Of a DNA stretch of 64,000 nucleotides, positions 31,068 through 54,963 are shown piece by piece. Location of the stretch: UHGV virus genome UHGV-0036853. One strand, written 5' to 3'. Numbering within the stretch: the stretch's first letter is position 1; each line of letters begins with the position of its first letter. The position numbers and the translations under genes were made by a program. The notes below the pieces were generated by a model, which was given only the letters and a program-made list of their open reading frames with translations, made no database searches and had not been told where the DNA came from. This stretch comes from a virus.

Positions 31068-34000
31068 TCAGTTGCTTGTTGCCCCAACAGTACCGGCAAA
31101 TTTCAGCCATTGACCTGACGGACTTCTATTACTACGGTAGTGATAAACGAGGATTGCGTTTGTCACTCCACCGTAGTCAGCTTTATGTGACGTTGTTAAA
31201 CGAATTGTATAATCACCGTTAGGTAGATTAAAAACTTCGATTATAGATTCTGCTAATTCTACAGCACCAAATCCCGTTATATTGTTGATACTGCCAGCAT
31301 TGAATCCCATAGCATCGCCAAAGCCAATCCAATAACTTTTGCTAAATGCCCCATTTGATTTAAGGTGGCTAATGAATGTGGACAAACTCATGCCCATATC
31401 CCCACCAGAAACAGAGGAAGTTCGCACAGTCATGCTTGGAAGAGAACTACTCTTCACATAGGAACTGAGAAGGTTTGTTACCTCTGTTTTCGTATAAGCA
31501 TTAAGGTTAGCCGCAGTCAAAGTTATATCGGCAGAGCCATCAAACGCCACACCAGCAATTTTCCTTGCTGTCTGCAATTTTGTGGCGGTTGCAGCATTAC
31601 CAGTAGTGTTCTGATTACCGGTCGTATTCACACCAGGTAAGTTAATATTGGCTGTACCGTTAAAACTAACACCACCGATAGTACGAGCCGTTTGTAACTT
31701 CGTGGCTGAAGCTGCGTTACCAGTCGTATTCTGATTACCCGCTATATTAACACCCGGCAAGTTAATATTGGCGGTACCATTAAACGACACACCTCCAATT
31801 GTTCTGGCTGTCTGCAACTTCGTTGCAGAGGCTGCGTTGCCAGTAGTGTTCTGATTACCGGTGGCATTGACACCTGGAATAGAGTCTTTGGACGTATAAA
31901 CTTGCGCCCATTCAGACCAACTGGATGCATCCGTATCTCGTCGCGAACGTACATGTACAGGCGCATGAGCACCACTTGTACCGCTCCAACCTATGAACAA
32001 CTCACCTTCACCAACGGCCGTTGCGCCCTTAAGATGAAGCACATTCCCGTAAGTCGAAGGGTAGCCATTGTTATATGCCTCGTACATCTGCAATCCAGTC
32101 GCAGCACCTTGTGTTGTACCGGTGAGCGCAGTAACGCGTCCTCTGGACGTAATTGTTGGTATTGAAATATTCGCAGAGCCGTTAAACGACACCCCGTTAA
32201 TAGTTCTAGCAGTTTGCAACTTGGTCGCTGTGGCCGCGTTACCGGTAGTGTTCTGATTACCGGCAGCATTAACACCAGGCAAATTAATATTCGCAGTGCC
32301 ATCGAAGCTAACACCACCGATGGTTCTTGCTGTCTGCAATTTAGTAGCTGTAGCAGCATTACCTGTGGTGCTTTGGTTGCCAGCTTTGTTAACTCCGGGC
32401 AAGTCGATGTTGGCAGTTCCGTTAAATGAAACGCCACCAATCGTTCTTGCCGTTTGAAGTTTTGTAGCGGTTGCGGCATTACCAGTAGTGCTCTGATTAC
32501 CTGCCGTGTTTACACCAGGCAAATTTATGTTCGCAGATCCATCGAAGGCCACGCCGCCGATAGTTCTTGCAGTCTGCAATTTCGTGGCGGTACTCGCATT
32601 GCCATTCAATGAACCAGTTAATCCACCAGTAACAGACAACGGACCTGAAACCGTCCCTCCTGATGTTGATAATGCACCTATATCCGATGGCGTAGGTTTG
32701 TATTTTGTATTGTAGTCTCGTCGCCAGCCTGGAGAATAATCTGTCCCGTGGTTAATATAAGTAAATTGAGCGTTAGCAGTACCACCACCGCTAGATGTTG
32801 TTGGTGTGGTAACGCGGATCGTCATTGCTGACTTTATCCCCATTACCTCAATTACTGCCCCGGCAAGATGAATATTGCCACAACCAGTATCAGTAATGAT
32901 TTTGTTGTTGCCATACGACCATGAGCCTTTACACATCCAGTACGGATGATTAAACGCCCCTTGAGAGTCCAACCATTCGACAAACTGTGCCGTAGTCCAG
33001 TTTCCTGCTGTTGTACTTACAGAGCCTCCAAATGCTCGCCCAGCGCCAATATTTTTCGTGAAGGTATCCTTACCTGGTATATCAGCACCATTCTGGTTCT
33101 TCGCCAATCGGCTATTCGCATTGTCATTCGCAGCTTTAACTGCCTTTGGAGTTGCAGCCAGTGATTCGCTGGTGCTATCGACAGCACTGCTAAGTTTCAC
33201 AACACCTTTAGTTGTAAGGCTTGCGTCTTCCATCGCAACTGCACCGGCAATCTCTTCAGCACGATCAGCGGCAGCTTCTGCACGGGTCGCAGCGGATTCA
33301 GCAGCAGTTTTGCTCTGAGATGCAGCCGTCGCACTGCCTGCCGCCTCTGTTGCTTTCGTGGATGCCGTTGAAGCACTACCCTTCGCAGCTGATGCCTGCT
33401 TGGTCGCCTCATCCTTTGAAGCAGACGCCGAGGTGGCTGATGCTGACGCAGAACTTGCAGATTCAGCAGCCGCAGTCTTAGAGGAAGCGGCATTGTCTTC
33501 TGAAGACTTTGCATTTGTTTCAGAGGTTTTCGCTGCTGATGCTGAATTTTTAGCGGCTGTAGCCTGATTCGTCGCCTCAGTCGCTTTTGCGGTAGCTGTT
33601 GCCGCTGATGACGACGCGCTTTCCGCAGATTTTCCTGCCGCAGTTGCACTTGATGAAGCACTATCCGCACTTGCTGAGGCTGCGCTTGCTGACGCTTCTG
33701 CCGCAGATTTCGAACTGTTTGCAGACGATGCACTCTGCCCGGCTGCCGTTTCAGATGCTTTTGCGTTTGTCTCTGACGCTTTTGCTGCCTTAGACGAATT
33801 TTCAGCTTCTGTTGCAAATGATGCCGCCGCGTTTGCACTCGATGAAGCGTTAGCCTCTGATGCTTTAGCCGCATCCTTAGATGCAGAGGCACTGGACGCA
33901 GATGTGGCCGCCTCCGATGCTTTAGTCGACGCTACAGATGCTGATTCTGCTGCCGCGACATATGCTGATTCTGCGTTCGTTTCAGATTTTTTCGCAGCAG

Positions 34001-34595
34001 TTGCACTCGCACTTGCAGCACTTTGTGAGGATTCCGCAGCGGATGCACTTTGAGACGCTTGAGAGGCTTTTTCTCCAGCGGTATTGGCGCTTTCTGCTGC
34101 TGCGGCAGCACTGGCCGCCGCCTCACGAGCTTTGTCGCCAGCAGCGTCAATCGCATCGGTGTTATTTTTATACCACTCAACGTTTTCGTTGTGCTCGTTG
34201 ACGATCTGCATCAGCGGCTTAACGGTCACTTCTGTACCGTCTTCACGCTCGATTGTCACCTCATCCAGCGCAGTCAACCAACTGCGCATGGACTTGGAAT
34301 CAGCCGACATACGCGACATTAGCGCAGTAAAGCGCGCGCTAAACTGTGTTAAGTCGCCTTCATAGGTCGTAATGATTCGGCACGGAACTTCAGACTGAGT
34401 TTCGCCGGTATAAGGTTCTGAGAGAACAATATTCGTATCGCTTGTTACGCGCTTGATCTCATACAGCTTATTGTCGGGGCCAATGACGATCATCCCCGGC
34501 AACACACCATTAGCTGTTACGTTCCAGGCTGTCCCAACCCCAACCAGAGTATTGCTACCCTGTGTAAATGTGATAGTACCTTCCCTGTACCACAT
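31068..34595 (-). CDS. side tail fiber protein with tandem ~38-aa repeats
   Basis: 1175 aa; Ala/Ser-rich coiled region; at least 8 repeats of GNQNTTGNAATATKLQTARTIGGVSFNGTANINLPGVN. Confidence 0.8.
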   Translation of the reverse strand: MWYREGTITFTQGSNTLVGVGTAWNVTANGVLPGMIVIGPDNKLYEIKRVTSDTNIVLSEPYTGETQSEVPCRIITTYEGDLTQFSARFTALMSRMSADSKSMRSWLTALDEVTIEREDGTEVTVKPLMQIVNEHNENVEWYKNNTDAIDAAGDKAREAAASAAAAAESANTAGEKASQASQSASAAESSQSAASASATAAKKSETNAESAYVAAAESASVASTKASEAATSASSASASKDAAKASEANASSSANAAASFATEAENSSKAAKASETNAKASETAAGQSASSANSSKSAAEASASAASASADSASSSATAAGKSAESASSSAATATAKATEATNQATAAKNSASAAKTSETNAKSSEDNAASSKTAAAESASSASASATSASASKDEATKQASAAKGSASTASTKATEAAGSATAASQSKTAAESAATRAEAAADRAEEIAGAVAMEDASLTTKGVVKLSSAVDSTSESLAATPKAVKAANDNANSRLAKNQNGADIPGKDTFTKNIGAGRAFGGSVSTTAGNWTTAQFVEWLDSQGAFNHPYWMCKGSWSYGNNKIITDTGCGNIHLAGAVIEVMGIKSAMTIRVTTPTTSSGGGTANAQFTYINHGTDYSPGWRRDYNTKYKPTPSDIGALSTSGGTVSGPLSVTGGLTGSLNGNASTATKLQTARTIGGVAFDGSANINLPGVNTAGNQSTTGNAATATKLQTARTIGGVSFNGTANIDLPGVNKAGNQSTTGNAATATKLQTARTIGGVSFDGTANINLPGVNAAGNQNTTGNAATATKLQTARTINGVSFNGSANISIPTITSRGRVTALTGTTQGAATGLQMYEAYNNGYPSTYGNVLHLKGATAVGEGELFIGWSGTSGAHAPVHVRSRRDTDASSWSEWAQVYTSKDSIPGVNATGNQNTTGNAASATKLQTARTIGGVSFNGTANINLPGVNIAGNQNTTGNAASATKLQTARTIGGVSFNGTANINLPGVNTTGNQNTTGNAATATKLQTARKIAGVAFDGSADITLTAANLNAYTKTEVTNLLSSYVKSSSLPSMTVRTSSVSGGDMGMSLSTFISHLKSNGAFSKSYWIGFGDAMGFNAGSINNITGFGAVELAESIIEVFNLPNGDYTIRLTTSHKADYGGVTNAILVYHYRSNRSPSGQWLKFAGTVGATSN

Positions 34596-34687
34596 GTTGA
34601 ATATGCTCCTTGATTTGGCGGGCTATCCTTGCCCGCCATTAAGTAAGTACATACTTATTTTTACCGATGTAAATATTTTTTTCTACA

Positions 34688-37600
34688 TTACAGAAGGCCA
34701 ATTCTTACTCGTAGGACGTTGTTATCGTCATAAACGTCAATCCGCTGACCATTTATGACCAGTCGCCCATTACCTCCGCTATTACCGTTGATCTCAAGCG
34801 TTCCATTTTTGCCGAACCGCCATCCAGATCTACCGCTAACAAAATTGGTAGATTGCAGATCGCCTACTTTTGCATTGGTGATTGTGCCATCCTTGATATA
34901 CGCACCATTCATATAGGCGATACTGTTTTCGATAACAAATGGCGTGGTGATCTTCCCGTTAACAGAGTTGACCAAACCAAATCTGTCCGCCTGCACCAAA
35001 AACTGAGAAAGACCGGTGGTGTCGATACCAAGCGCAATACCGGCAACATACTTCTGCCCTCCGCTCGTTGAAGTCTCCATTTTCAACGTCCACGCGGTTG
35101 AGACTTTTTTGTTGGTATCAGCAATGGCCGTTGCCTGCTGTTGAATTGTCGCGGTATTTCCATCCACCTCTGCTTTCAGAGTATCGATTCGCCCACTTAG
35201 AGCATTATCTGCCTGCGTTCTCGCTGTCGTTTCAGTTGTGACCGCCGCAGAAATGTTGGCTGCTGTTTGAGACTCTAAGTTTGTGATTTGAGTCGCCAGT
35301 GCCGCATCTTGCTCTGTACGCGTTTTCGTTTCGGTTGCTACAGCCGCTTTAATATCCTCTTTGTATTGAGAGGTCAGCTTGGTGATCTGAGATGACAACG
35401 CCGAGTCAGCATCAGTTCGAGCCTGCGTTTCAACTGCAACGGCCGCACTAATATCTTTCGCAGTCTGTGCTTTTAAACTTGAAACCTCTTTTGTTAAAGC
35501 GGTATCACCATCTGCACGAGCCGTTGTTTCTCTGGCAAGAGATGCCTCGAGATCATTAGCTTTTGCTGTAAGAGACGTAATCTGAGTGGACAATGCACTA
35601 TCGGCATCAGTCCTTGCCTTTGTCTCTACAGCAACCGCTGCGGCAATATCAGTTCCGGTCTGTGCTCGCAGGCTGTTAATTTCTCGTGAGAGCGCCTGGT
35701 CAGCACTTGCCCTGGCCTCCTGCTCCTGAGTGATGGCAGCGGATATATCACCGTCAACCTTTGACTGAAGCTGGTTTATTTGTTTGGCTAATGCAGAGTC
35801 CCCGCTTGCTCGAGCCTCCTGCTCACTACGTATTGCAGCAGAAATATCATCATCAACCTTTGCCTGAAGTTGGGTGATCTGACTTGCCAGAGCCGAATCT
35901 TCCGTTGCTCGGGCTTCTTGCTCTTCCTTAATAGCTGCGACGATATCGTTGCTTACTTTCGACTCAAGCTGAGTGATCTGTGTCGTCAGAGCTTCATCGG
36001 CAGATGTACGAGCCTCCTGCTCTGTACTAATCGCCGCGCTGATATCTCCTTCAAACTTAGATTGCAGCTGAGTGACACGCTTTGCCAACGCTTCATCGCC
36101 ATCGGCACGAGCGGTGGACTCTTCCAGAATACTGGCCTTAATGTCTTCGCCAATTTCTACGCGAATTTCCTCAACCTTCGTGGCCATTGCAGACATATCA
36201 TCAGCAAAGGTTTTCTGTGTTGTTGCGATCTTCGCGTTATTGACCATCTGCTTGTGCTGGTCTTCATCTTGACGAAGAGCCAGGTCAATATTTGTTTTGG
36301 CTAACGCCTCAATGTTCGTAGTCAGTTCTGCACTGGCACGATCGACCTCTGCAACCGTCTTTTTCATTTCTTCAACAGCAGCGGAGCTTTCCTCTACCGT
36401 TGACTGCAACACTTCCAGTTGTTTAGCGTTTGCAGCATCGCCTTCAACACGAGCCTCGCTTTCCTTAGCAATAAGAGCTGCTGCTTCATCTCTTGCAGCC
36501 TTTATTGCCTCGACTGTATTAGCGAGAGCTTTATCGTGTTCAGATACGGTGTTTTCGATTTCAACAATTGCAGCATCAGTAGCATCAATTTTTTCAAACG
36601 CTTCATTGACCTTGTCGATCGTTGCCGAAACCTCACCTTTAAGCTCGGTTTGTGCGTTCTCCAAAGCATCGCTACGCTCGTTGAATTTTATTTCAAAATC
36701 CGCGAGGTTATCGCTGAACTGCTTATCTAATTCAGCTATATCTTCCTTAACGTCGTTTACCGACCCCTCCAAAGATTCGACGCTCTGGTTGATATGCTCA
36801 TTTAACTCGTCAACTGCTTCTTGAGAGGCTTTGCTGTTGATGTCCTCAAGCAGAGCCTGACCAAGCTCAGACGATGTAATCTTACCTTCCAGGAACGACA
36901 GTACATCGCGAGTTGTCGCCTCTGTACCCAAGTTTGAGTTCGGAGGACTTAACATGCCGCGCTTGTTCGATGCTCGAACCCAGTAATACCACGTTTCACT
37001 ATCCCCAAGACCAGCATGTGTAAAGGTGGTGCTTGCAGACTCCGCGATCAGTTTCGCCGTATCCAGATTGTTGGTCTGGGATGCGTAAACATTAATGTGA
37101 TCAAGGTCTACCGAATCTGGATTAACCCAATTTAGTATCACATTACGATAGTCTCCAACGGCCGTTAATGACGTTGGTGCATCCGGCGGTGTCATTGTGC
37201 CCAGCACCTGATAAACGGTACTGATAATTTCTGTTTTTTTACCGTTGAATGAAACCGCATACAGTTGGAAGTCGTAGCGTCCATTCTCCGCGACATTAAC
37301 GATTTCGTATTGCTCTTCGGTTACACGCGCCGATTGCCAGTTCGATACATTGTTTTCATCAGAACGTCGCCAACTGATCCAATACTCTGGAGATTTCCCT
37401 TCCCATGTTGCAGTCAGTTTTACTGACAGGTTTCCCGGGCTTGAGAGATAAGTCCCTTCAGTGATTTGCAAATTAGATGGCTTGGAGTAAGTCGGGTCCA
37501 ATACCGTCGTATTCTGCGGGATAAGCGTTGCACCATTGTCGATTGCCTCATATTTAGACGGATTGTTCTCAACAGCGGTGATGTCAAAGCTACCCGGCGT

Positions 37601-39418
37601 TTCCCCCTGCGCGATGTTAACGATGCGAACGCGCATAGGTTCGAGATCTGGTTCTGTAATTGTCCAGACACCGTTCAAAACAGGCGTTTCCGCTGACGAC
37701 AGGGCTTTTGAAAACGTAACCTTTGTTATGTTTTCGCCAGTTTCAAGAACATCGCGTTCAACGATTTTGCCTTCCTGATTCAATATCCGAATAAAGCTGC
37801 CGCTTTTAGCTAACGACACAGGCGCATCGAGAGTGATGCTGTTTTTGGTAAACTCCACAATTCGACCGGAGTTACGTTTACCTGCACGATATTTGTTCTG
37901 AATCAGAACGGTTTCACCGGGCATCAGAAATGAGGCGTCTAAGCCGGCAGTAAATGTAATTACATCCGACTCCATTCTGGCGGTATACAAAAGCCACAAA
38001 CCAACTCGGTGAGCCTGGCCTCGGCTTGTACATCCAAATGCTACGACTTCTGTTTTACGCTCACCATAACGGCGCATTGCGTCCTGATCTTCAACGTACT
38101 CGATGTTTTGCTTATAACCGTCCTCCTTGTTGTTGTAGGTCACGAGCGCAACGGATGGGCGATCTTTACGCGCAGAACCTTTATAGGTAAACAGTCCATC
38201 TTTGACGTTGGAGTTGGTAAACATCATTACCGGATCTGATGGGCTATCCTGCATGATGTTAACCATGCCACCAGCCCAAAACACCATGCCGCGGAATGCA
38301 CCGGCAATATCCTGAATTAATCGGTATGCGTCTTGTCGACTGGTGATCTGCGTATTGATTGCAAAGCGTTTCTCTTTACCCCCAAAGCCATCATCGACCT
38401 CTTCGTCACAATATCGACCAATCAGGTAGAGCTGGCCGAGGTCAATCATGGATTCCGACACAAATTGCCCAAGACCATACCGAGTATTGGTAAGCAAATC
38501 GTAGAGAATCCACGCAGGGTTTGAAGAAGACAACAGCTTAAAAGTACCGTCCCATACGCCGACATAAGTATTGGTGTATTCGTTGTAGTTTGACGGCACT
38601 CGAATTTTGATACCGCGCACCAAATACGAACGAGAAGGCATTGTGCTACCAAACTGCTCTGAATTGACCTTTAAGCCAACAAGTGCAGAGTTAGGGTAGT
38701 TCATGGGTGTATCTACAATCTCACCTATGGAATCAACCCATGTGTCGTTGTAGAGGTACTGGCTACTGTTATCATCTGTAAGACGAATCACCCTAACCTT
38801 GTATGCACGACCAGGCTTAGGTAGTTTCAGCTCATAGCTACGGTAATACACTCCTGTTTTCTTTGCCGTTAGCGTGATATCAACGCTTTTCTCACCTTCT
38901 GCCACTACATCAGAAAATGTTGCGTCTCCGTTGGCGATCTGGAATTTGTACTTCACCGTAGTGCCATTTGTATCGCCAGAGCTTTTATCAACGCTACGTA
39001 AAGAGGGGAATTTCATGATGACACGAACGCGATCAGCTTCATCGTTATCGATTGAAACCGTAACGTCGTGTGTTTTTTTAAGCTGAATATTTACGGACTT
39101 AGGCGTTTCAACAAAATCAAAACCAGCCATTGGCGTCTGGTCTTGTGAGCCGTCACGAAAATCCCATGTAATACCGCTGAAGTTGGAAGAGCCATCTTCA
39201 TTCAAGATCGGTAAATCGTCGATGAAGATCGACTTTGCGCCATTTACCAGGCCACCGATAACCCCCTCACCAAGAAGGTCGAGGATGGCTGCCATAGCAC
39301 GAGAATTGACAGTATCATCAGCTTCAACCGGGGTACGGCTGGAGCTTTTACTTTTCTTGCCACCAGCACCGGCAATAAGAAGCGGTAATTTTTTCTTCTT
39401 GAACTGTTCCATGTCCAA
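34688..39418 (-). CDS. central tail fiber / host specificity protein J-like
   Basis: 1576 aa; lambda J-like N-terminus; fibronectin-like region; long tandem coiled-coil repeats. Confidence 0.8.
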   Translation of the reverse strand: MDMEQFKKKKLPLLIAGAGGKKSKSSSRTPVEADDTVNSRAMAAILDLLGEGVIGGLVNGAKSIFIDDLPILNEDGSSNFSGITWDFRDGSQDQTPMAGFDFVETPKSVNIQLKKTHDVTVSIDNDEADRVRVIMKFPSLRSVDKSSGDTNGTTVKYKFQIANGDATFSDVVAEGEKSVDITLTAKKTGVYYRSYELKLPKPGRAYKVRVIRLTDDNSSQYLYNDTWVDSIGEIVDTPMNYPNSALVGLKVNSEQFGSTMPSRSYLVRGIKIRVPSNYNEYTNTYVGVWDGTFKLLSSSNPAWILYDLLTNTRYGLGQFVSESMIDLGQLYLIGRYCDEEVDDGFGGKEKRFAINTQITSRQDAYRLIQDIAGAFRGMVFWAGGMVNIMQDSPSDPVMMFTNSNVKDGLFTYKGSARKDRPSVALVTYNNKEDGYKQNIEYVEDQDAMRRYGERKTEVVAFGCTSRGQAHRVGLWLLYTARMESDVITFTAGLDASFLMPGETVLIQNKYRAGKRNSGRIVEFTKNSITLDAPVSLAKSGSFIRILNQEGKIVERDVLETGENITKVTFSKALSSAETPVLNGVWTITEPDLEPMRVRIVNIAQGETPGSFDITAVENNPSKYEAIDNGATLIPQNTTVLDPTYSKPSNLQITEGTYLSSPGNLSVKLTATWEGKSPEYWISWRRSDENNVSNWQSARVTEEQYEIVNVAENGRYDFQLYAVSFNGKKTEIISTVYQVLGTMTPPDAPTSLTAVGDYRNVILNWVNPDSVDLDHINVYASQTNNLDTAKLIAESASTTFTHAGLGDSETWYYWVRASNKRGMLSPPNSNLGTEATTRDVLSFLEGKITSSELGQALLEDINSKASQEAVDELNEHINQSVESLEGSVNDVKEDIAELDKQFSDNLADFEIKFNERSDALENAQTELKGEVSATIDKVNEAFEKIDATDAAIVEIENTVSEHDKALANTVEAIKAARDEAAALIAKESEARVEGDAANAKQLEVLQSTVEESSAAVEEMKKTVAEVDRASAELTTNIEALAKTNIDLALRQDEDQHKQMVNNAKIATTQKTFADDMSAMATKVEEIRVEIGEDIKASILEESTARADGDEALAKRVTQLQSKFEGDISAAISTEQEARTSADEALTTQITQLESKVSNDIVAAIKEEQEARATEDSALASQITQLQAKVDDDISAAIRSEQEARASGDSALAKQINQLQSKVDGDISAAITQEQEARASADQALSREINSLRAQTGTDIAAAVAVETKARTDADSALSTQITSLTAKANDLEASLARETTARADGDTALTKEVSSLKAQTAKDISAAVAVETQARTDADSALSSQITKLTSQYKEDIKAAVATETKTRTEQDAALATQITNLESQTAANISAAVTTETTARTQADNALSGRIDTLKAEVDGNTATIQQQATAIADTNKKVSTAWTLKMETSTSGGQKYVAGIALGIDTTGLSQFLVQADRFGLVNSVNGKITTPFVIENSIAYMNGAYIKDGTITNAKVGDLQSTNFVSGRSGWRFGKNGTLEINGNSGGNGRLVINGQRIDVYDDNNVLRVRIGLL

Positions 39419-39429
39419 AAAATCCTTGA

Positions 39430-40020
39430 TTACATAAGCTGGTCGATGGTGATAGAAGAACTCACGACCTGTGAGCCAACTAAAATTTCCTCGCCATAGA
39501 TAAGCTGTACAGGGTTCCCCTGGTTTGTTGTGTTTTGAGGTCCATCAAAGTAATAAGAGTTCGAGTTATCCGCCTGCCTCACACTTTCGTTAGTGGCTTG
39601 CGGAGATATGATTTGCGCTATACCGCCCATCATCAGTGACAAACCGAGAGGCGCAAGAGCGGGCACCCATATCGAGGCAACCATTAATACTGCTCCAACA
39701 ACCGTCTGAAACCATCCAAAAGCAGATCCACCACTTCCTCGCGGAACAGGGGTAATGCGGATTTTTGCAATATTGTCAGACTGCCCCATCATCTGATATT
39801 CACTCTCGTCCACAGACCACTTGTGGCCCTGTTTATTGGTGATCTGGATGTGGTATCTGTCATAGGTTTTGATATTGCGCTTCATCCATGCTTTAAACCC
39901 AGGCTTGTTGGCCTCAATTAAATCCAGAGCCTGTTTTGTATTGCGCACCTTTAGATGCCAGTGGCGGCCAAAATGTTTGGCCATAGGGCCGCCAAGCTGC
40001 ACATGAACTAACTCAGACAC
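39430..40020 (-). CDS. tail assembly protein I-like
   Basis: 196 aa; position between K-like and J-like genes; C-terminal hydrophobic segment. Confidence 0.7.
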   Translation of the reverse strand: MSELVHVQLGGPMAKHFGRHWHLKVRNTKQALDLIEANKPGFKAWMKRNIKTYDRYHIQITNKQGHKWSVDESEYQMMGQSDNIAKIRITPVPRGSGGSAFGWFQTVVGAVLMVASIWVPALAPLGLSLMMGGIAQIISPQATNESVRQADNSNSYYFDGPQNTTNQGNPVQLIYGEEILVGSQVVSSSITIDQLM

Positions 40021-40832
40021 GTCTCATCTCCCTTGAGCAAGTCTTTGTGACGCAAGTGATGCGTCGTATGTTTCTGATACATCCCGCCGTAATAAGCACG
40101 ACAACTTAGGCGGTCGATCTGGTGATGAAGAATCATTCCATCACCGATATAAACCGCGCAGTGGTCAGGCATTTTCCCGTATTGGATAAAGAAGATGTCC
40201 CCACGTTGAGGCTCTGTTCCGGGTGCAAGCCGTACCAATCCTTCGTTTCGGTAGTTCTGGTCGAGAATGTCGTTATCGCCGGTGTACCATGATGGAATAT
40301 GCAGGTGTGCGTTCGGGTTTAGTTCGACGTTAAACTCACGCTTCAAATAGTCCCGACACAACATCCAGCAATCGAATACGCCAAATACATACGGTCTGCC
40401 CAGGTATGGCATTTCGAAACCATCAGGAGTGATCACATTCATCTCGCTAAAATGGAAAGGGGCATCTCCCTCAACATTCTTGCGAATAGCCAGAATCATC
40501 CACGGAACTTCCGTCGCTTCGCAGCCTGCACGATCGGCATCAGATGCTTCTGCTGATTCATCAGTATGTGAATGCCAGATTGCGATAACATCACCCGCAT
40601 CCTCTGCCGCCATAATGTCGTCAACGTGCATTACAAAAGTGTTCTGCGGGTTCTCCGAAACATTCCGCGCTTCCATAAAGCGATATTTGTCGCCATTAGT
40701 TCTAACCAGAAAGCCACACGCTTCATTAGGGTAGCGATTTATGGCGCAGAGATAGATTTGCTGCATAACGTCAGAGCCAAGCTCAGGGATTGCTTTATTA
40801 CCCATACCGCGTAGCTCCAATAAATCCGCCAA
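40008..40832 (-). CDS. tail tip assembly protein K-like (JAB/MPN plus NlpC/P60)
   Basis: 274 aa; JAMM-type motif IWHSHTDESAEASDAD; conserved order L-K-I-J. Confidence 0.75.
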   Translation of the reverse strand: MADLLELRGMGNKAIPELGSDVMQQIYLCAINRYPNEACGFLVRTNGDKYRFMEARNVSENPQNTFVMHVDDIMAAEDAGDVIAIWHSHTDESAEASDADRAGCEATEVPWMILAIRKNVEGDAPFHFSEMNVITPDGFEMPYLGRPYVFGVFDCWMLCRDYLKREFNVELNPNAHLHIPSWYTGDNDILDQNYRNEGLVRLAPGTEPQRGDIFFIQYGKMPDHCAVYIGDGMILHHQIDRLSCRAYYGGMYQKHTTHHLRHKDLLKGDETCLS

Positions 40833-41529
40833 AATGGATCACACCGTCGGCAAAATAATTCCGACGCGCATTACAGGCGTCATAACGTTTTGTGCAGTAA
40901 TCCGCACCAGACATAGACGTCTGCTGGTTATTTTTGTCGAAATATGGACCGGTATAGCCGCATTCTGGCCCTCGGTATTTCCACGGGCAGGTGTTTTTAA
41001 TGATCTGACGATACGGCAGTTGCACCCCCATCAAATCGAACACACTGGACAATTCAAACTCGACAACCTGATGAGTTTCGAGAGTTTTCTGTTCGATAAA
41101 CCACATTTCATCCGGGAAATGTTGGTTTGGATCTGCTGTTGGGTTGCCGTCTTTAAAATTAACGGCATCGAGGAAGCGAGCCAGCGTCATCTTGCGAATA
41201 ATGCGGCAGCCAACAAGATCGTCGTTTGCCTGAACTTCCGCAGAGACGGTTCCGGCAAAGTTCGATACCTGAATTTTTGGACGTGGCAACGTTCCCTGGC
41301 CAGTTTTATCAAAGCCTGATGCTTTGATTGGCCACGGCTCGTATGTCACTCCTTGCCAGACGACCGGTTGCATCAGTTCGTTTGTTCCGGCGTGGAAGAA
41401 TAGCTTCCCCCCTGAAGTTGTGTTCGACATATCCAGTACGAACAACTCAATGAGTGCAGAGGGAGATAAGCTCTGAATATCAGCTTTAATTCCCATTGTT
41501 TCATCCTTGAAATAAGTAGGCGCTAACAT
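40798..41529 (-). CDS. minor tail protein L-like
   Basis: 243 aa; C-terminal Cys cluster CPWKYRGPECGY. Confidence 0.7.
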   Translation of the reverse strand: MLAPTYFKDETMGIKADIQSLSPSALIELFVLDMSNTTSGGKLFFHAGTNELMQPVVWQGVTYEPWPIKASGFDKTGQGTLPRPKIQVSNFAGTVSAEVQANDDLVGCRIIRKMTLARFLDAVNFKDGNPTADPNQHFPDEMWFIEQKTLETHQVVEFELSSVFDLMGVQLPYRQIIKNTCPWKYRGPECGYTGPYFDKNNQQTSMSGADYCTKRYDACNARRNYFADGVIHFGGFIGATRYG

Positions 41530-41578
41530 CCTGTCAGCGCCACAATGATAGTAAATTAGTACTTACTTATCCAGATAC

Positions 41579-41914
41579 TTAAGCCTCAAATACTTGTCTG
41601 AATGGAGCGGTTAATACTGCGTACCCCTGATATCGCTTGACCGTATGACTGTCACATACAACTACAATCCGTTTTCCTCTTGGATTAACCCAATAGAACG
41701 ACTCAACGCCTGCTCGCTCAGTCAGGAAGTCATCGATTGCATTAATTTCGTTGTATGATCTGGTAAAGGTTAACGACCATTCTTCTTTAATACGATTAAG
41801 ACCTTGAGCTTGTCGCTGCTCGTAGTCATCACCAAAATTAAGTACCGTTACATTCGGTTTTACGCTTTTTTCAGATTCGTAATCTGGATACCAATTAAAC
41901 GTTTGTCTTTCCAT
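41579..41914 (-). CDS. minor tail protein M-like
   Basis: 111 aa; position upstream of the L-like gene. Confidence 0.6.
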   Translation of the reverse strand: MERQTFNWYPDYESEKSVKPNVTVLNFGDDYEQRQAQGLNRIKEEWSLTFTRSYNEINAIDDFLTERAGVESFYWVNPRGKRIVVVCDSHTVKRYQGYAVLTAPFRQVFEA

Positions 41915-41956
41915 CTCACATCCTTGTGAGACTGCCCCGGTCGGGGCAGTCGATAG

Positions 41957-42706
41957 TTAGTTACGTTGAGTGTTTGGGTTGAGTGATCCGCCAGGGCGTT
42001 TCTCTTGAGCGATAGTCTCAAGCGCGATTGCTTTCATCCGTTGAGCGGCATTGTTCCATATGCTTTCTGTATCGCCGGATTCAGTTGTGCTACCGTCACT
42101 ATGGACGTTGATCTCAATTGATACCGGAGAAAGAACATTTCCTCCTCCACTCATACCATCGGTACTGAGCGTTACAGGGATTGTTCGACCATCAGGCAAT
42201 GGAACATACGCCTCATTCATAGAACCTTCCCCAAACAACGCTAATTGAGGTGAGTTAGCAATACCGCCTTTCTGGTATGCCCGGAGCGGGATCACGCCGT
42301 CTTTTCCGAATATTCCTCCATTTGCAAACTTCGGGATTGCAGGAATGCCTTTAGTTCCGTCAGCCACACTGCTGGTTGCGGTTTTAGCAGAGCTTGATGT
42401 CACGCTGTCGAAACCACCGCCAGCCCAAGCTGAAACAAGACCAGATGCAACCGTTGCTCCAAAACTCAACCACTTATTACCAGAGCCGGAAGCATTAGCT
42501 CCAAGCATTGCAAACGCGGCAGACAGCGCGCCGGTAACAGAGCTGAGGTTCTGCATCGAGAAGATGGAGTCCTTCACGGCTTTTGTCTCGGCATCTTTGG
42601 CTTCAGTGCTATCAAATAGCCCTGATACCCAGCTACCAATCGCATTTGTTGCTGTGCCAATTGCGCTGGTGGTCTGCTGTGTTGTTTGCCCCAATCCAGT
42701 TCCCAA
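41957..42706 (-). CDS. tape-measure-protein C-terminal-like fragment
   Basis: 249 aa; Gly/Ser/Ala-rich with FANGGIFGKDGVIPLRAYQKGG...EAYVPLPDG typical of TMP C-termini; far too short for a full tape measure. Confidence 0.45.
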   Translation of the reverse strand: MGTGLGQTTQQTTSAIGTATNAIGSWVSGLFDSTEAKDAETKAVKDSIFSMQNLSSVTGALSAAFAMLGANASGSGNKWLSFGATVASGLVSAWAGGGFDSVTSSSAKTATSSVADGTKGIPAIPKFANGGIFGKDGVIPLRAYQKGGIANSPQLALFGEGSMNEAYVPLPDGRTIPVTLSTDGMSGGGNVLSPVSIEINVHSDGSTTESGDTESIWNNAAQRMKAIALETIAQEKRPGGSLNPNTQRN

Positions 42707-43473
42707 GTAACGGTTTTATTTGTTGCTCCTGCCGGCTCGACATTTGCGGTCAGCTGAACAGTTTTGTTTGCCTCAACGGTTGTGCTATTTGGGTCGATTT
42801 CGACGCCGGTAACAGCCACAACAGGCGCAGTTACTTCCACCGTTGCAGTTGCCTTTTTGCTGCCATCTTGGGAAACGATCTCAATCGTCGCAGTGCCAAC
42901 TTCTACACCAGTAACGTTCCCGCTCTGGTCTACCGTTGCCTTATCTTCATTTTTGGAAGACCAGGTAACAGCCTTATTCGTCGCATTTGACGGCTGAACA
43001 TTCGCTTTCAGACTGACTGATTTCCCTTTCTCAACAGAGGTTGAGTCTGGCGTTACCGTTACGGATTGAACGGCTACCGGATTTACGGTGACTTCCACTG
43101 AAGCGGAAAGCTGGGTTTCCTGATCAGTTGCAGTAATTTTTACTTTGCCTGGTGCTACGCCAGTTACTAATCCAGTGCCGTTAACGGTTGCAATTTGATC
43201 ATTGGCTGACTTCCAGGTGAATGAACTGGCACTCTTACCCATACTAATACCTGCACTAAGTTGAACAGTTTTCCCAACCAAAACTGACGGTGAAGCCGGG
43301 GTTATGTTTACGGATTGGGAGAGGGGAACCGCCTGCAAACAAGCAGATAGCTGACTTTGTTGCCGCTCGGTTAAAGGTTCATCGGAGATAGAATTGGTAA
43401 ATCCGGCGCGACACATATGCCCCGTAAAATCCGAAAATGCCTCTTCCGTAATCTTCATCTTTTGTTCTGGCAT
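42574..43473 (-). CDS. Ig-like (Big_2) domain protein; decoration or tail protein
   Basis: 299 aa; two Big_2-like repeats (VTGVAPGKVKITAT, VTGVEVGTATIEIV); 3' end overlaps the next ORF in another frame. Confidence 0.55.
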   Translation of the reverse strand: MPEQKMKITEEAFSDFTGHMCRAGFTNSISDEPLTERQQSQLSACLQAVPLSQSVNITPASPSVLVGKTVQLSAGISMGKSASSFTWKSANDQIATVNGTGLVTGVAPGKVKITATDQETQLSASVEVTVNPVAVQSVTVTPDSTSVEKGKSVSLKANVQPSNATNKAVTWSSKNEDKATVDQSGNVTGVEVGTATIEIVSQDGSKKATATVEVTAPVVAVTGVEIDPNSTTVEANKTVQLTANVEPAGATNKTVTWELDWGKQHSRPPAQLAQQQMRLVAGYQGYLIALKPKMPRQKP

Positions 43474-43494
43474 TTCTTGCTCCTACAAAAAGGG

Positions 43495-43522
43495 TGGGCG
43501 TATAGCCCACCCTTAAACTTAG
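43495..43522 (-). terminator. rho-independent terminator after the major capsid gene
   Basis: Hairpin agggtgggcgtatagcccaccct with a T-run on the minus strand. Confidence 0.6.
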
Positions 43523-43546
43523 ATAATTACTTATCTACCGCACTGA

Positions 43547-44422
43547 TTAAATTTTTACATTGGTCAGTGCAGCGATAGCCTTATCGTGCTTATTCGCCAG
43601 AGAGCAGTACCACTTCACACGGGTACGTACTGCGTCTTTGTTCTGTACAGTACCAATGTTTTCAACAACGATACCTGCGTTATCGCCGCCATACAGACCA
43701 GTAACGCCGTTCTCTTCTGACAGATGCAAGCAGTAGATGCTTGCTTTGCCAGCATCGGTCGGGATGAAGTCGTTGATGATGAACGGAACGCCGTTATGAC
43801 ACAGCATCGGACGACCGAAGTTCTCCATCATGATTTCAGACGGACCTACATTTACTGTACGCAGCAGCGCACGGTAAGCACGAAGGTGCTCTGAACGCAT
43901 CATGATGCAGTCAGCACCAAGATCTTTCACCGCATCGACCAGTTCGTCGAACATAGAGAAAGTCATAGATGCACCGGCGATATCGATCTTCTGATCTGCG
44001 TGCATCAGGCGTGGAATACCGTCGAACGCTTTGTTGTTGGAGCTGGAGTCACCCAAAATCAGGTTGCGGCGGAACGCACGAGCCAGACCTTTAACTTTCT
44101 GACGAACCTGAATAGCCAACTGGTTATTGGTGTCGGCCATAGTGGTTGCCAGGAATTTATCAACGTCTACGTCACCAGCCAGAATACGCAGTTTCGCAAC
44201 GCATTCTTCGAAGGTTGCTGCACCTTCAGGGATGGTGTCGTTAACGTCGATGAAGGTAGCTTCACTCAGCGTTTTTTCACGGTTGTACAGATATGCCTTT
44301 GAATTAATTTTCATAAAAGGCAGGATGGCAAACAGGTCATCGCGATCGATGATAGTTTCGATCACACCCTGTTCAAGTTCGTTGTTAGACAGCTTTTCAG
44401 CTTCTTCACGCAGTAATGGCAT
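43547..44422 (-). CDS. major capsid protein
   Basis: 291 aa; follows the scaffold gene and precedes a strong terminator. Confidence 0.65.
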   Translation of the reverse strand: MPLLREEAEKLSNNELEQGVIETIIDRDDLFAILPFMKINSKAYLYNREKTLSEATFIDVNDTIPEGAATFEECVAKLRILAGDVDVDKFLATTMADTNNQLAIQVRQKVKGLARAFRRNLILGDSSSNNKAFDGIPRLMHADQKIDIAGASMTFSMFDELVDAVKDLGADCIMMRSEHLRAYRALLRTVNVGPSEIMMENFGRPMLCHNGVPFIINDFIPTDAGKASIYCLHLSEENGVTGLYGGDNAGIVVENIGTVQNKDAVRTRVKWYCSLANKHDKAIAALTNVKI

Positions 44423-44447
44423 CTATCAATTCCCTTTGATTTAGATG

Positions 44448-45335
44448 TTACTTAAGTCCAATTTTCCCCAGACCGGAGGCCAACTTATCCATAGTCGACT
44501 TGTTCTTCGGTTGGGATATTGTGTAGGTCGATTTGGAATGTGAGCCTACACCCTGCTTGGCTTCGCTACGCATCAATGCGTCAGCTTCCGGATCTGCCCG
44601 CACAATGCGTTCAATCGCGGATTCAAACGGCAACGGCTTACCTTCACCGTCAACCAGAACAGCTCGTTCTTTATGACCTGCCGGTTTGTCATAACCCACT
44701 ACGCTACCGTCTTCACCCACTTCAAAATGAGAACCGTAGATCACGCGGGCTTTTGCCGGAGTCATCAGAACTTTGTCACGTAGGAAGAGAGAGTTACTGA
44801 AGGAAGCGCCCACGGTCATCTCGACTAATTGAGATTTCAGTGATGCGTTTTCACTTTCCAGTGCTGCATAACGTTCGTCACGCTGTGCCAGCTCTGCCTG
44901 GTGTGCTTCGATCATCTGTTTTTTAACAGCATCGAACTCACCACGACGCTCCAGTTCAGCTTGCTCCGCCTCACGACGTGCGTTTTCTGCGGCCTGTTCA
45001 GCTTCTAAAAGCTGGCGAGCACGCGCCGGGTCGATATCACCGTACTGAGCAAGCTGATCGGCCAATGTGCGCTCTTTCTCTTTGCGCTTCATGTTCTCTT
45101 TCAGCAGTTCAGCACCAGCTTTCTTGGTTTTGCGAAGTTCGACCAGTAACTCTTCATGAGTCATGCCAGCGTATTCGTCATCACCCTTCGGCTGCTCTTT
45201 TTGTTCACCCTGCTTGTCAGGATCTTGTGTACTCTGCTCATTATCAGCAGCTACACCGCCAGCGCCCCCACGCTCATGCGCTTCAGCAACATCCATCAGA
45301 CCACGACGGGCCAAAAGCATTTGCCACAGTTTCAT
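44448..45335 (-). CDS. scaffolding protein
   Basis: 295 aa; charged coiled-coil (Ala/Glu/Gln/Arg-rich) between portal and capsid genes. Confidence 0.55.
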   Translation of the reverse strand: MKLWQMLLARRGLMDVAEAHERGGAGGVAADNEQSTQDPDKQGEQKEQPKGDDEYAGMTHEELLVELRKTKKAGAELLKENMKRKEKERTLADQLAQYGDIDPARARQLLEAEQAAENARREAEQAELERRGEFDAVKKQMIEAHQAELAQRDERYAALESENASLKSQLVEMTVGASFSNSLFLRDKVLMTPAKARVIYGSHFEVGEDGSVVGYDKPAGHKERAVLVDGEGKPLPFESAIERIVRADPEADALMRSEAKQGVGSHSKSTYTISQPKNKSTMDKLASGLGKIGLK

Positions 45336-45356
45336 AAAAATTCCCTTTGTTACTTA

Positions 45357-46931
45357 TCACTCGTTCTCTTGAGTAGATGAGTCCCCATTCCCTCGGGGTT
45401 GATCTTGCCCGCTTTCTTGGGCCACACCACGATCATAAGTAAGTACTGACTTATTTTCAAGGGTATTTAGATCATTTTTTGGCGGAAAATTCAAGAGATC
45501 TTTATCAAATTCCTTTTTCATCGCCTCAGTAATGTTCGGGAAAATCTTCTCAATAAGCATTTCCATCTGGTGACGACGTACAGAGTCCGGTGCCTGAAGT
45601 AATGACAGTTTCTCGGCAACAGAAAATTCATCTGTAAGGCCACGAATATCGAAACTTTCTGGATACGCAATTAAAGAGTGGTCTTCGTCCAGATCTACCC
45701 CCATCCATTTCGCAACCAGTAGCATGATTTGGCGTTCAGCCCTTTCCAGACGCTCTGCTTTTGTGACAAGCAAGCTATTTACACGCTGGAAGTCATACAT
45801 TTTTGCGGCACCAGATGAGTTATCGATTCCCTGTGCGTTGTCCTGCTTCGTTCGCTCACCAGCTACACCAACTGAATGGTAGATTTCGTTAATCACCGTC
45901 TTAATCGTAGTGATGATCATCTGAGCTTGTTTCGGGTCTGGTGACAGATAAAACGGCTGGTTTCCACCTTCAGAATCGTAGGTGAAGACTCGCTTTGTGC
46001 CCATTTCAAGCACTTTAGTGTGGTTTTCATCACCAGGTAAAAGCGACTGTACCGGTATAGCCAACTGGCTAAATGTCTGATCCTGAATAATGGCATCAAG
46101 GTTTGACAGATAGTTTGCAACCGCACGATCAAGATAAGCGATATCATCGATCAACGATGGGCTGAAATACGGTGATTCACTTTCTCCAATACAATCAACA
46201 GGAAACACAGGAACTACGCCGAGATTATGCTCACCGCTATCCTCTAAAATAACTTTTGCCTGACGGCGACCTGCTCCACCAGCGCCCTTCTTCACTTCCT
46301 CACGGAACAGATACCACTCGTTTTGTGTCCACAGACGATAACGTTGGTATTCCTGACCTGTAGAAGTAAAAGGATCTGCGTCATCACGAGCGACTTCCAC
46401 AATTAACGCCCACAACATATTCCCGTCGTCGTCCCATGCCACATCCAGCATTTGCTGAGGTGAAATCCAGTAGGCGTAGGCGCGAGCATCTTTCTTTTTC
46501 TCGTCAGCTACTGACTCAACATCACCACTCATCGTGCTATCGACAACAACCCATATGCGACCGTAAATAGACGACTGCAAATCAATAGCGGCCATAAATG
46601 AGTCAATAGAGGCATTCTGGCGAGTCGCACGTTTCCAGAAATTGCGGATCTGCTCTGGTGCCTCTTCGATATTTCTATGAATGTCTTCTTTAAAGAGATA
46701 TTTGTTGATGAGGTTTACCACCTCACGAGTGTGGTTGAAGCGATAAGCACGTTCAACTCGCTCCTTAAACTCCTGATCTCCCTCTTTAAAGTAACGAAAG
46801 ATATTGTCTGTAAACCAACCACGCCCGCCAGCGTAAGTGCTGGCGAGGAAGTCCCAATGTTCTTTTTTCTTTTCGTATTCCGGGTGGCGTCGCGCCACCA
46901 GATCCTTAATTTGTTTGTCGTTCAATTCCAT
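45357..46931 (-). CDS. portal protein
   Basis: 524 aa; immediately downstream of the large terminase. Confidence 0.7.
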   Translation of the reverse strand: MELNDKQIKDLVARRHPEYEKKKEHWDFLASTYAGGRGWFTDNIFRYFKEGDQEFKERVERAYRFNHTREVVNLINKYLFKEDIHRNIEEAPEQIRNFWKRATRQNASIDSFMAAIDLQSSIYGRIWVVVDSTMSGDVESVADEKKKDARAYAYWISPQQMLDVAWDDDGNMLWALIVEVARDDADPFTSTGQEYQRYRLWTQNEWYLFREEVKKGAGGAGRRQAKVILEDSGEHNLGVVPVFPVDCIGESESPYFSPSLIDDIAYLDRAVANYLSNLDAIIQDQTFSQLAIPVQSLLPGDENHTKVLEMGTKRVFTYDSEGGNQPFYLSPDPKQAQMIITTIKTVINEIYHSVGVAGERTKQDNAQGIDNSSGAAKMYDFQRVNSLLVTKAERLERAERQIMLLVAKWMGVDLDEDHSLIAYPESFDIRGLTDEFSVAEKLSLLQAPDSVRRHQMEMLIEKIFPNITEAMKKEFDKDLLNFPPKNDLNTLENKSVLTYDRGVAQESGQDQPRGNGDSSTQENE

Positions 46932-46957
46932 TTGAATAACCTTAGATAATTACTTAC

Positions 46958-48214
46958 CTATCGAGAACCACCAAGAATAACACGGTTTTTGACTGGATAC
47001 CTACGATGTACTGGATAGCCCAATGCGTCTGCACTATGCTCAATGCCACCTGTCTTATCCATATCTCGTGTTCCAGGCTTGTAGATGACTTTTTCCAGTG
47101 AATCAATCAAATGCTTGCACTTCGGATCGATATACAACCGGATATCTCCAGATGCGGTCATCAGCATTCGGTTAACAGCATTAACACGATCCGCAATTGG
47201 CGGGTGCTTTTTCGAATAATCGACACGTAAGAATCCCTTCTCTTTGAAAATGTCGACGTCAGACTCCCCGCGAGCATGTTGGCGATAAGCACCTGCCGGA
47301 TCTGGAAATACCGTTATCTGTGATTTCCAGCGCCAGAAGCGTCTCTCAAGCTCATCACAAACCTCTGCCGTGTTAGAGGAAAAGAGCACCAATTCATCAA
47401 TTGCCCATAGCTCGCCGTTTGGCTGAGGTTGCAAAATTACGGAAGACATCGGGTCAATGTTGAAGTCCTGTCCTACCCATATAGGCAACCGAGGGTTGAA
47501 TTGAAGCGGTTTAACATGCACGTTACGATCGAACGGGTAGTAAACGCGACCGGACATGTTCTCAAAGCTGGCTAGGTACTCCTGAGCGAACGATTTGGGG
47601 TCCATATCGTTCTTAGCAGCTTCAATTTCCGCCGTAGGTACAAACGGAGAATCGGCAGTTACAAACTGCCAGCTCTTCCACTGTCCCTTTCGTTGCAGCT
47701 CTACGTTCTGACCTATAGTCCACAGTTTGTGAAATTCCGAGAAGCCTTTTGGCGTTCCAATGATCAGTGCACCGCCGCGTGTCGATGAAAGAGTTGGTCG
47801 TAGTACCTTGTACCAGGTATCAGCCTTCATATCCTGAAATTCATCAAGCACTACAAAATGCAACGCAACGCCGCGCAGAGTGTCAGGCTTATCAGCACCT
47901 TTAAGGGCGATCTCCGAACCGTTCTTCAACACGATTGTCATCGTGGTGTCGTTCTTTTTCCTAACCCACTTACGAGGCAGAACTTCCTGTAGATCGTCCC
48001 ACAAAATCTGACGAGCCATCTGATAAGTCGGGGCGACATACCAGACCCTTTGCTTTTTTTCCTTTGCAGCCGCACGAATAATAGTTGAGATCGACAACCG
48101 GGATTTCCCCCAGCGTCGACCAGCACAAACAACTTTAAATCGATGCGGTGACTGGAAGACTTTCATCTGTCCAGAATGCAACTGCACAAGACTTAGAGAG
48201 GACGGGATTGCCAT
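46958..48214 (-). CDS. terminase large subunit
   Basis: 418 aa; Walker A-like VVCAGRRWGKS; ATPase then nuclease layout. Confidence 0.85.
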   Translation of the reverse strand: MAIPSSLSLVQLHSGQMKVFQSPHRFKVVCAGRRWGKSRLSISTIIRAAAKEKKQRVWYVAPTYQMARQILWDDLQEVLPRKWVRKKNDTTMTIVLKNGSEIALKGADKPDTLRGVALHFVVLDEFQDMKADTWYKVLRPTLSSTRGGALIIGTPKGFSEFHKLWTIGQNVELQRKGQWKSWQFVTADSPFVPTAEIEAAKNDMDPKSFAQEYLASFENMSGRVYYPFDRNVHVKPLQFNPRLPIWVGQDFNIDPMSSVILQPQPNGELWAIDELVLFSSNTAEVCDELERRFWRWKSQITVFPDPAGAYRQHARGESDVDIFKEKGFLRVDYSKKHPPIADRVNAVNRMLMTASGDIRLYIDPKCKHLIDSLEKVIYKPGTRDMDKTGGIEHSADALGYPVHRRYPVKNRVILGGSR

Positions 48215-48846
48215 TATTCGTCCTCCCCTTCACTTCCATCATCTGTCGCATCAAATTCGCTTAGAGCTTCTTCTTCCAAAGTCTCAAGCAATTCGTCATC
48301 GATGATTTCAGGCTCGTCGTCTTCCTGACGTAATTTCGCCACCTGGGAAGGTGTAAGCTCACCAAATACCAAGTTCGGAATTTCTTCCTCGTCATTTTCT
48401 GCATGATCCATACCCAACGCTTTGGACGAAACTTCAAAGCATTTTGCAAGGGTATTACTTGCTCTCTGTAAGCTCTTGAGAGAATCCTCAATCGCCCCTA
48501 AAGGCTTACCCTCACGTTTGGCCGTAGTGACTTCGACCATCACCATCTGCCCCAACGCATACGCCCAGCCGTCATAACGTGTACGACGTTCTTCTATCTT
48601 TTCCGCACGGGCTTTAGCGCGAAGCTCTGCGTCAGATTTAAGAGACTCACGAACCATCTTCCCAACAGAGTCCGCGCCTTTCTCTAATCCTCGCTTTTTG
48701 AAATGTCTGGAGAGTGTTTCACGACGAATGCCGTACTCTTCCTCCAGCTTTGAGAGTGTATATTCGCCTGACGTCCATTTGGCTTCAGCTTCGGCCCACT
48801 CAGCTGGTGTCAGGCGAGTTTTTACCTCGTCTTTTTCGACCGTCAT
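48214..48846 (-). CDS. terminase small subunit
   Basis: 210 aa; N-terminal HTH-like segment, acidic C-terminus, stop overlaps the large-terminase start. Confidence 0.6.
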   Translation of the reverse strand: MTVEKDEVKTRLTPAEWAEAEAKWTSGEYTLSKLEEEYGIRRETLSRHFKKRGLEKGADSVGKMVRESLKSDAELRAKARAEKIEERRTRYDGWAYALGQMVMVEVTTAKREGKPLGAIEDSLKSLQRASNTLAKCFEVSSKALGMDHAENDEEEIPNLVFGELTPSQVAKLRQEDDEPEIIDDELLETLEEEALSEFDATDDGSEGEDE

Positions 48847-48940
48847 AGATCCCTCTAAAACACACAGAGCGCGTCCATGCGCTCTAAAACAACTTGTTTA
48901 CTGCATCTGCTAACCAACTTGTTTTCTGGGGTGTTTAATT

Positions 48941-49030
48941 AGGTCTGGGCATATCTTACTAAGCCTGCTTCCGTATATATTTAATAAGTTACTTATTATT
49001 TATATATACAGAAGCAGGTCTTTAAATAAG
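48941..49030. repeat. AT-rich palindromic element, copy B (nested inverted repeats)
   Basis: Core cctgcttccgtatatatttaataagttacttattatttatatatacagaagcaggtc matches 25722-25812; outer arms ggtctggg / cccagacc. Confidence 0.6.
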
Positions 49031-49042
49031 CTCCCAGACCGA

Positions 49043-49309
49043 TTACATCACCAGTAACTTCGCTTTGGCTCGACCTAAAGTGGTTAACCCAAGAGTCCGG
49101 CGGTGATAGCGATTGTCACTGCGTTGGCGCGTATGCCCTTTCTCCACCAGCCCCTTTTTTATCAGAGCGCGAATTGAGAACTGGATACTTTGCTTGGTTG
49201 TCTTGTACGGCAAAACTTCAAGCAATTCGTCCAGATCAAGTAGATGACCTCGCTCATAACCGAGATTGAGCGTTTTGATGATGTCCTTTTGTTTATCGGT
49301 TAACGTCAT
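49043..49309 (-). CDS. small basic DNA-binding protein (winged-helix-like)
   Basis: 88-aa ORF, Lys/Arg-rich. Confidence 0.4.
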   Translation of the reverse strand: MTLTDKQKDIIKTLNLGYERGHLLDLDELLEVLPYKTTKQSIQFSIRALIKKGLVEKGHTRQRSDNRYHRRTLGLTTLGRAKAKLLVM

Positions 49310-49318
49310 GGCAAATCC

Positions 49319-52234: not shown

Positions 52235-52298
52235 TAAGTAATCACTTACTTATTATAATAGCCAAATAACATACAAAAGGCACTAAGGAAAGAGGTTT

Positions 52299-53858: not shown

Positions 53859-53860
53859 TT

Positions 53861-54936: not shown

Positions 54937-54963
54937 CCATCCATTAATCATAGCCAGACAAAT

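Follow-up and report, generated by a model that had tools for sequence, protein, structure and literature searches.

The closest described relatives of the element that we discuss here are Escherichia phage Cyrano and Salmonella phage SSU5. Cyrano (pLF82, OV696614) is induced by genotoxic stress, with virion DNA measured by qPCR above the plasmid background, and electron microscopy showed siphovirus particles, their tails about 259 nm long, that have been attributed to it (PMC9928086). Loss of the phage way of life is also documented, as P1-like phage-plasmids have become plain plasmids by gene loss and, in the conclusion of the authors, cannot complete the phage cycle (Pfeifer and Rocha 2024, PMC10879196).

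The stretch of DNA that we analysed, referred to below as the window, is 64,000 nucleotides long and, judged from its sequence, belongs to an E. coli phage-plasmid of the SSU5/Cyrano type. Its head module has 98.5% DNA identity with that of Cyrano and 82.4% with that of SSU5, and the records of these two phages, which begin upstream of the small terminase gene, each hold a second matching place that covers the tail-tip side. More than 200 E. coli plasmids of about 100-115 kb match the region at 95-99.8% identity, and positions 6358-79141 of NZ_JBLWMF010000003.1, an E. coli phage-plasmid of 110,799 bp, are collinear with the whole window, the collinearity being interrupted by a few mosaic cassettes and one large gap (8.1 kb). 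It is this collinear homology to SSU5-type genomes, in both the structural and the replication modules, that places the window among the SSU5-type phage-plasmids. The element is not an integrated prophage; among complete E. coli records the window matches plasmids and never a chromosome.

The likeness to Cyrano and SSU5 extends to gene order, which is the same in the window as in an annotated intact plasmid locus (L001) that served as our reference for the gene content of the lost interval, and to the partition genes of ParB type that adjoin the packaging genes; two genes annotated in L001 as ParB-type have collinear counterparts in the window, the ORFs at 50868-51569 and 51536-52234. A RepB/Rep3_N initiator is seen in a sibling and in the reference plasmid at positions beyond the window. 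The differences lie in the tail. The tape measure of Cyrano has 1,525 aa, whereas the window is without 84% of its tape measure, and in contrast to both phages it is without the neck, terminator, tube-candidate and chaperone-position genes. Our reading, to which we give a probability of about 0.88, is that an SSU5/Cyrano-type phage-plasmid has been made defective by one recent illegitimate deletion of about 8.1 kb that took out the tail-shaft genes.

Some other features of the window and its relatives can be recorded here. A cluster of four tRNA genes (Ser-tga, Thr-tgt, Tyr-gta and Asn-gtt) lies at 16923-17924 on the minus strand, and is likewise present in the reference plasmid. Two genes of the HdeA/HdeB family of acid-stress chaperones, at 5240-5572 and 5647-5985 on the plus strand, form a cargo cassette amid replication genes; sibling L008 and L009 both have the cassette, which the reference plasmid does not. 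The reference plasmid also lacks a variable cassette at 54201-56226, in which a 187-aa ORF (55349-55912, plus strand) matches Pfam Flag1_repress (FljA-like, phase-1 flagellin repressor) with E = 1e-83. Beside its cor-like gene the reference plasmid has an IS2 copy (L002 35405-36633) that is missing from the window at 30057-30069. Complete SSU5-type modules from capsid to J were found on two very large contigs, of 1.24 Mb (L023, GCA_949281625.1) and 369 kb (L026, GCA_006232215.1), which points to either integration into a chromosome or misassembly; the genes that come after J in L026 (AAA_5, DUF5682) are unrelated. A 15-kb contig labelled 'MAG: Bacillota bacterium' (L088, JAEWTL010000011.1) has an exact 31-nt match, extending to at least 55 nt, to SSU5-type tape-measure sequence from E. 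coli plasmids, and is probably misbinned.

The structural genes of the window are all on the minus strand. Those that are retained, all of them intact, are as follows.

48846-48214, minus strand: DNA-binding protein at the small-terminase position, by family match
48214-46958, minus strand: large terminase, by family match
46931-45357, minus strand: portal, by family match
45335-44448, minus strand: scaffold (DUF6651), by family match
43547..44422, minus strand: major capsid protein (phrog_212, E = 2e-105), of the same length as in L001
41579..41914, minus strand: minor tail protein, lambda M-like (PF05939, E = 4e-34)
40798..41529, minus strand: minor tail protein L (PF05100, E = 1e-96)
40008..40832, minus strand: K-like tail-tip protein with JAB and NlpC/P60 domains (PF14464, PF00877)
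39430..40020, minus strand: I-like tail assembly protein, with no Pfam match but collinear with the 'tail assembly protein' gene of L001
34688..39418, minus strand: J-like tail tip protein of about 1574 aa (PF24801, PF13550, PF09327)
31068..34595, minus strand: tail fibre, 1175 aa

In the block from scaffold to small terminase (44448..48846, minus strand) the gene lengths equal those of L001. The other structural genes that are retained likewise have the lengths found in intact relatives, and they are identical to those of the sibling. The lambda-type tail tip module M, L, K, I, J is present in that order, as shown by Pfam signatures and, for the I-like gene, by position and the reference annotation. 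A protein identical to the M protein of the window occurs in 2876 blocks of a public collection. Two of the tail proteins are repetitive: the fibre contains a long low-complexity stretch rich in Ala and Ser, along with many tandem repeats of a motif resembling GNQ(S/N)TTGNAA(T/S)ATKLQTARTIGGV, and the J-like protein has a long run of repeats resembling 'DISAAI..EQEAR..AD.AL..QI..L'.

What the intact relatives have between the Ig-like gene that follows the capsid gene and the M gene is well conserved, in that nine intact loci fetched by means of the M protein all have the same ten genes between capsid and M. The interval lost from the window comprises eight of these genes whole, together with the 3' end of the Ig-like gene and the 5' part of the tape-measure gene.

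Ig-like gene, 306 aa in relatives: last 48 codons lost
Genes for proteins of 144, 277 and 114 aa, no assigned function, at the adaptor/head-closure position: lost whole
Neck1/tail-completion protein of 157 aa (phrog_927): lost whole
Tail terminator of 127 aa (PF12691): lost whole
Tube candidate of 248 aa, with a C-terminal Big_2 domain, matches to major-tail families and the position of a tube gene: lost whole
ORFs of 105 and 74 aa at the chaperone position: lost whole
Tape-measure gene, 1532 codons in L001: codons 1-1279 lost (about 84%), including the TMP_3 and Tape_meas_lam_C domains

The siphovirus morphogenesis module of the window is thus incomplete, with eight genes and tape-measure codons 1-1279 absent. 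The initial annotation, made from the window alone, had given the order as terminase, portal, scaffold, capsid, Ig-like, tape-measure-like, M, L, K, I and J, which family scans reproduce, and its claim that the tail tube, chaperones, terminator and most of the tape measure are absent is borne out by tblastn over the window and by the gene content of relatives. It had also listed the head-tail connector as absent, and here a distinction is needed: the portal, which is labelled 'Head-Tail connector' in the Cyrano record, is present, but the genes between the Ig-like and tape-measure genes are indeed missing. Tail tube or tape-measure genes elsewhere in the element had been named as the finding that would speak against a deletion; a tblastn search of the 64-kb window with the proteins of an intact relative gave no second copy of any of the eight missing genes, the only hits being cross-matches between Ig domains.

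The point of loss can be placed to the nucleotide. In blastn alignments to intact relatives the match breaks at window 42700/42701: window 33111-42701 aligns to L001 2270-11881, and window 42700-54201 to L001 20001-31506. The missing stretch is 8,121 nt by comparison with L001 or NZ_JBLWMF010000003.1, and by our arithmetic about 8.09 kb by comparison with other intact relatives, whose tape-measure genes are slightly shorter. The same break is seen against Cyrano, SSU5 and the more than 200 E. coli plasmids. In a base-by-base comparison, agreement on the left flank extends through ...CCAATCCAGTT and on the right flank begins at TTCCCAAGTAACGG..., with TT (AA in the sense of the genes) the only 2 nt exactly common to both parental flanks; the gene-sense similarity around the joint is imperfect, at 5 of 7 positions (TTGGGAA and TCGGTAA). 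As the flanks of the joint share so little homology we attribute the deletion to illegitimate recombination. Homologous or repeat-mediated deletion was rejected, there being no direct repeats of at least 8-10 nt at the parental breakpoints and only the 2 nt of exact identity, and the deletion is not site-specific either.

Three features lie at or across the joint.

42574..43473, minus strand: chimeric ORF of 299 aa with an ATG start, in which residues 1-258 are native Ig-like sequence and the last 41 are from tape-measure DNA read out of frame
41957..42706, minus strand: ORF of 249 aa with a TTG start
41957..42701, minus strand: 3' remnant of the tape-measure gene, its last 248 codons, corresponding to residues 1280-1532 of the 1532-aa L001 protein

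Much of what was first noticed at this place stands. A deletion junction had been proposed near 42700, and the alignment to intact relatives suggested as a check gives one single clean deletion of about 8.1 kb at the position given above. The 133-nt out-of-frame overlap of the two ORFs is confirmed at 42574-42706 and arises because the deletion joint fuses the two genes, and the 249-aa ORF was correctly seen as no more than a tape-measure C-terminus, since it matches positions 1274-1523 of 1523 in phrog_1292 (E = 1.4e-130). By tblastn, residues 1-258 of the 306-aa Ig-like protein map to window 43473-42700 at 100% identity and tape-measure residues 1280-1532 map to window 42700-41960. The 299-aa ORF has three Pfam Big_2 matches and a match to phrog_215, the Ig-like gene having been cut within its third Big_2 domain.

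The TTG start of the 249-aa ORF, at 42706-42704, is built from Ig-side bases at the joint, so we regard this start as accidental; no obvious ribosome-binding site is present upstream of it. For the source contig QRLO01000012.1 (L005) no product is called over the interval of the chimera and the remnant, and an exact look-up of both ORFs among about 15 billion proteins gave no match. At GTGA, window 42577-42574 on the minus strand, the TGA of the chimera overlaps an in-frame GTG of the tape-measure remnant, and it is conceivable, purely on the arrangement of these codons, that a C-terminal piece of the tape measure, of about 206 aa, could by chance be made through coupled translation.

A search for homologues of the remnant gave short or partial proteins (five named 'partial', most on contigs of less than 10 kb), which are uninformative on breakpoints. 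One of the matches, a Yersinia pestis 'hypothetical protein' of 158 aa, may be a plasmid-borne tape-measure remnant; it has 70% identity with the remnant of the window over the C-terminal two thirds of the latter. It covers 67% of the remnant query, so its breakpoint differs from that of the window. The plasmid pMT1 has a backbone in common with pHCM2/SSU5-type elements.

The age of the deletion can be judged from near-identical elements. The exact tail-fibre protein of the window is on just four public contigs, and on three of these there is a full-length tape-measure gene. Over 23.5 kb that take in the joint, contig QRLO01000012.1 of assembly GCA_003472255.1 (96,913 bp) and the window are 100% identical, window position x being position x + 32,000 of this contig. 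Two siblings, GCA_028314645.1 (108,126 bp) and a Logan contig (104,138 bp), have 9-10 differing positions in 21.6 kb, one of which is the base beside the joint, and both carry a tape-measure gene of 1519 aa. Since siblings that are 99.95% identical keep the full tape-measure gene, the deletion must be recent. There are no differences between window 31068-42701 and sibling L004, and the orphaned tail-tip genes therefore show no decay yet; the J-like protein gene, taken separately, is the same as in L004 and has one difference in L006.

Megablast searches of 5,426 complete E. coli genomes, PLSDB and a phage collection did not find the joint, nor did searches of GTDB representatives, IMG/VR and JGI metagenomes with exact patterns of 25-40 nt; among the collections searched one public assembly carries it, GCA_003472255.1, which is a draft. 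As a rule the module is conserved: the 10.1-kb interval is covered to at least 80% in one place by 218 of the 236 complete E. coli records that match, and a 1-kb query centred on the tape-measure breakpoint is covered to at least 80% in all but two of 198 matching PLSDB plasmids (196/198). Among fetched loci the site has the intact reading in 61 of 63 copies, and a longer left-flank pattern found 18 further contigs, with the site intact in all. Eight matches in IMG/VR to a pattern that allowed any non-intact base were set aside as chance, as none was similar to the window and by our own estimate about 9 would be expected for 17 specified bases. A different deletion, of 2,350 nt and inside the tape-measure gene, is present in another SSU5-type element (L027, GCA_045109255.1 JBJGTL010000017.1, at about 7752-10001), which retains just the final 168 nt of the gene and has no called product there.

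One element, the plasmid pYLPI6a (NZ_CP074043.1) of E. coli PI6, from a pig in Cuba, has a tape-measure breakpoint that coincides to the nucleotide with that of the window. Its joint, at L028 10165-10176, reads ...CCAATCCAGTT(A) and then, on the other side, TTGGAACCAG..., that is, tape-measure remnant followed by a scaffold fragment. Like the window it is a decayed SSU5-type plasmid that has kept M, L, K and I. However the deletion in pYLPI6a is larger and composite, with the remnant joined to a 219-nt scaffold fragment, with the portal, terminases, capsid and Ig-like gene gone, and with J truncated and an IS3-family element beside the fibre gene. PGAP labels its tape-measure remnant a pseudogene. 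Over M-J pYLPI6a and the window have 88.9% identity, and as the window in addition has intact siblings, the two deletions must be independent.

At the shared breakpoint the intact site is a perfect 7-bp palindrome, TCCAGTT-ACCG-AACTGGA (-6.0 kcal/mol), with the break at the boundary of arm and loop; the other breakpoints of the window and pYLPI6a differ. By our rough estimate, for about 20 cross-element endpoint pairs over about 15 kb, such a coincidence has a chance of about 0.4%. However the hairpins at the breakpoints (-6.0 to -7.8 kcal/mol) are not exceptional in local folding energy against a background of -5.4 +/- 2.5, and positions within 1 nt of the stem/loop boundary of a perfect 6-bp hairpin make up about 1.5% of the region, which leaves the palindrome no more than suggestive. 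About 60 further copies of the site yielded no third case of the tape-measure breakpoint. That the arm/loop boundary of the palindrome is a true deletion hot spot is thus a tentative suggestion that we would sooner doubt than accept. If it is true, breakage specific to the sequence or structure of this site would be a favoured way for a widespread family to lose its tail and turn into plain plasmids, and should the breakpoint common to pYLPI6a and the window recur in larger surveys it would be a sign that the tape-measure gene has a specific fragile site.

The confinement of the joint to one draft (WGS) assembly, and its absence from the other collections searched, would be expected if the deletion were an artefact of assembly, library or culture and the plasmid in the isolate were intact. 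However the flanks share 2 nt and no repeat, which leaves a graph assembler without reason to collapse them, and QRLO01000012.1, which is reported in two samples, is 7-11 kb shorter than its near-identical siblings, as fits a real loss. There are moreover real deletions in the same module in the finished plasmid pYLPI6a and in L027, and we consider an artefact improbable. The shorter contig, its shortfall against the siblings being put at more than the deletion itself, also counts against the proposal that the tail-shaft genes have been relocated in the element or the genome, or are supplied in trans by a helper, so that tailed virions are still made. What can be said for this proposal is that the source contig, of 96.9 kb, extends beyond the window that was searched, by 32,000 nt at its start and 913 nt at its end, and that the remaining genome lies beyond it too. 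But the window itself gave no copy by tblastn, and in sibling L008 the first 10 kb past the left end of the window has only replication and maintenance genes, among them those for an SMC-like ATPase, a metallophosphoesterase and RepB (Rep3_N); on the remaining left side, the reference plasmid has nucleotide-metabolism and replication genes, with no tail genes. A helper plasmid of the same type would be expected to be incompatible. Relocation or a helper is in our judgement very improbable.

The two ORFs at the joint overlap in the -1 frame, and some phages add Ig-like domains to structural proteins by frameshifting, so one could propose that the arrangement is native, either to a tail-less or short-tailed lineage or as the outcome of programmed frameshifting, with the Ig-like protein fused to a short tape-measure-like one. 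However the overlap is in none of the more than 200 related plasmids and phages, nor in the other fetched loci that carry the site, and the ten genes from capsid to M are the same in nine of nine intact loci. The flanks are 98-100% identical to elements with the full module, and the Ig-like gene breaks off inside its third Big_2 domain. A native architecture is hardly credible on this evidence.

The reading that we prefer is thus the recent illegitimate deletion. Recombination at the level of microhomology fused the Ig-like gene at codon 258 to the tape-measure gene at codon 1280, out of frame, with loss of the eight whole genes and about 84% of the tape measure. Replication and partition as a plasmid are presumably retained, and heads may still be filled. 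With no terminator, tube, chaperones or tape measure the tail should be unable to polymerise, and hence the element should be non-infectious; with no tail polymerised, it would make no infectious virions unaided. From its gene content, then, the element probably no longer makes infectious particles, and its inheritance would be vertical, as a plasmid, which would be the first step in the decay of a phage-plasmid to a plasmid.

We suggest that in annotation the element be described as a defective phage-plasmid with two pseudogenes, the Ig-like/tape-measure chimera and the tape-measure remnant, and that it not be counted as an inducible phage in surveys of prophages or phage-plasmids. Together with its near-identical intact siblings it makes a clean natural pair for study of what is gained and lost when horizontal transfer is abolished, and it offers a snapshot of the very first step in conversion of phage-plasmid to plasmid in the SSU5 group.

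With regard to known systems, the window is a defective derivative of the SSU5 group in which the rest of the backbone is otherwise intact, the loss of function being what its gene content predicts. A deletion that yields a defective phage-plasmid is an ordinary kind of event that was already known, and is here mapped to the nucleotide. As in the P1-like cases (PMC10879196), key virion genes have been lost while plasmid maintenance persists. However the P1-like cases are in another family and are older and more eroded, some of them having gained conjugation functions, whereas the window has a single fresh deletion and no other visible decay.
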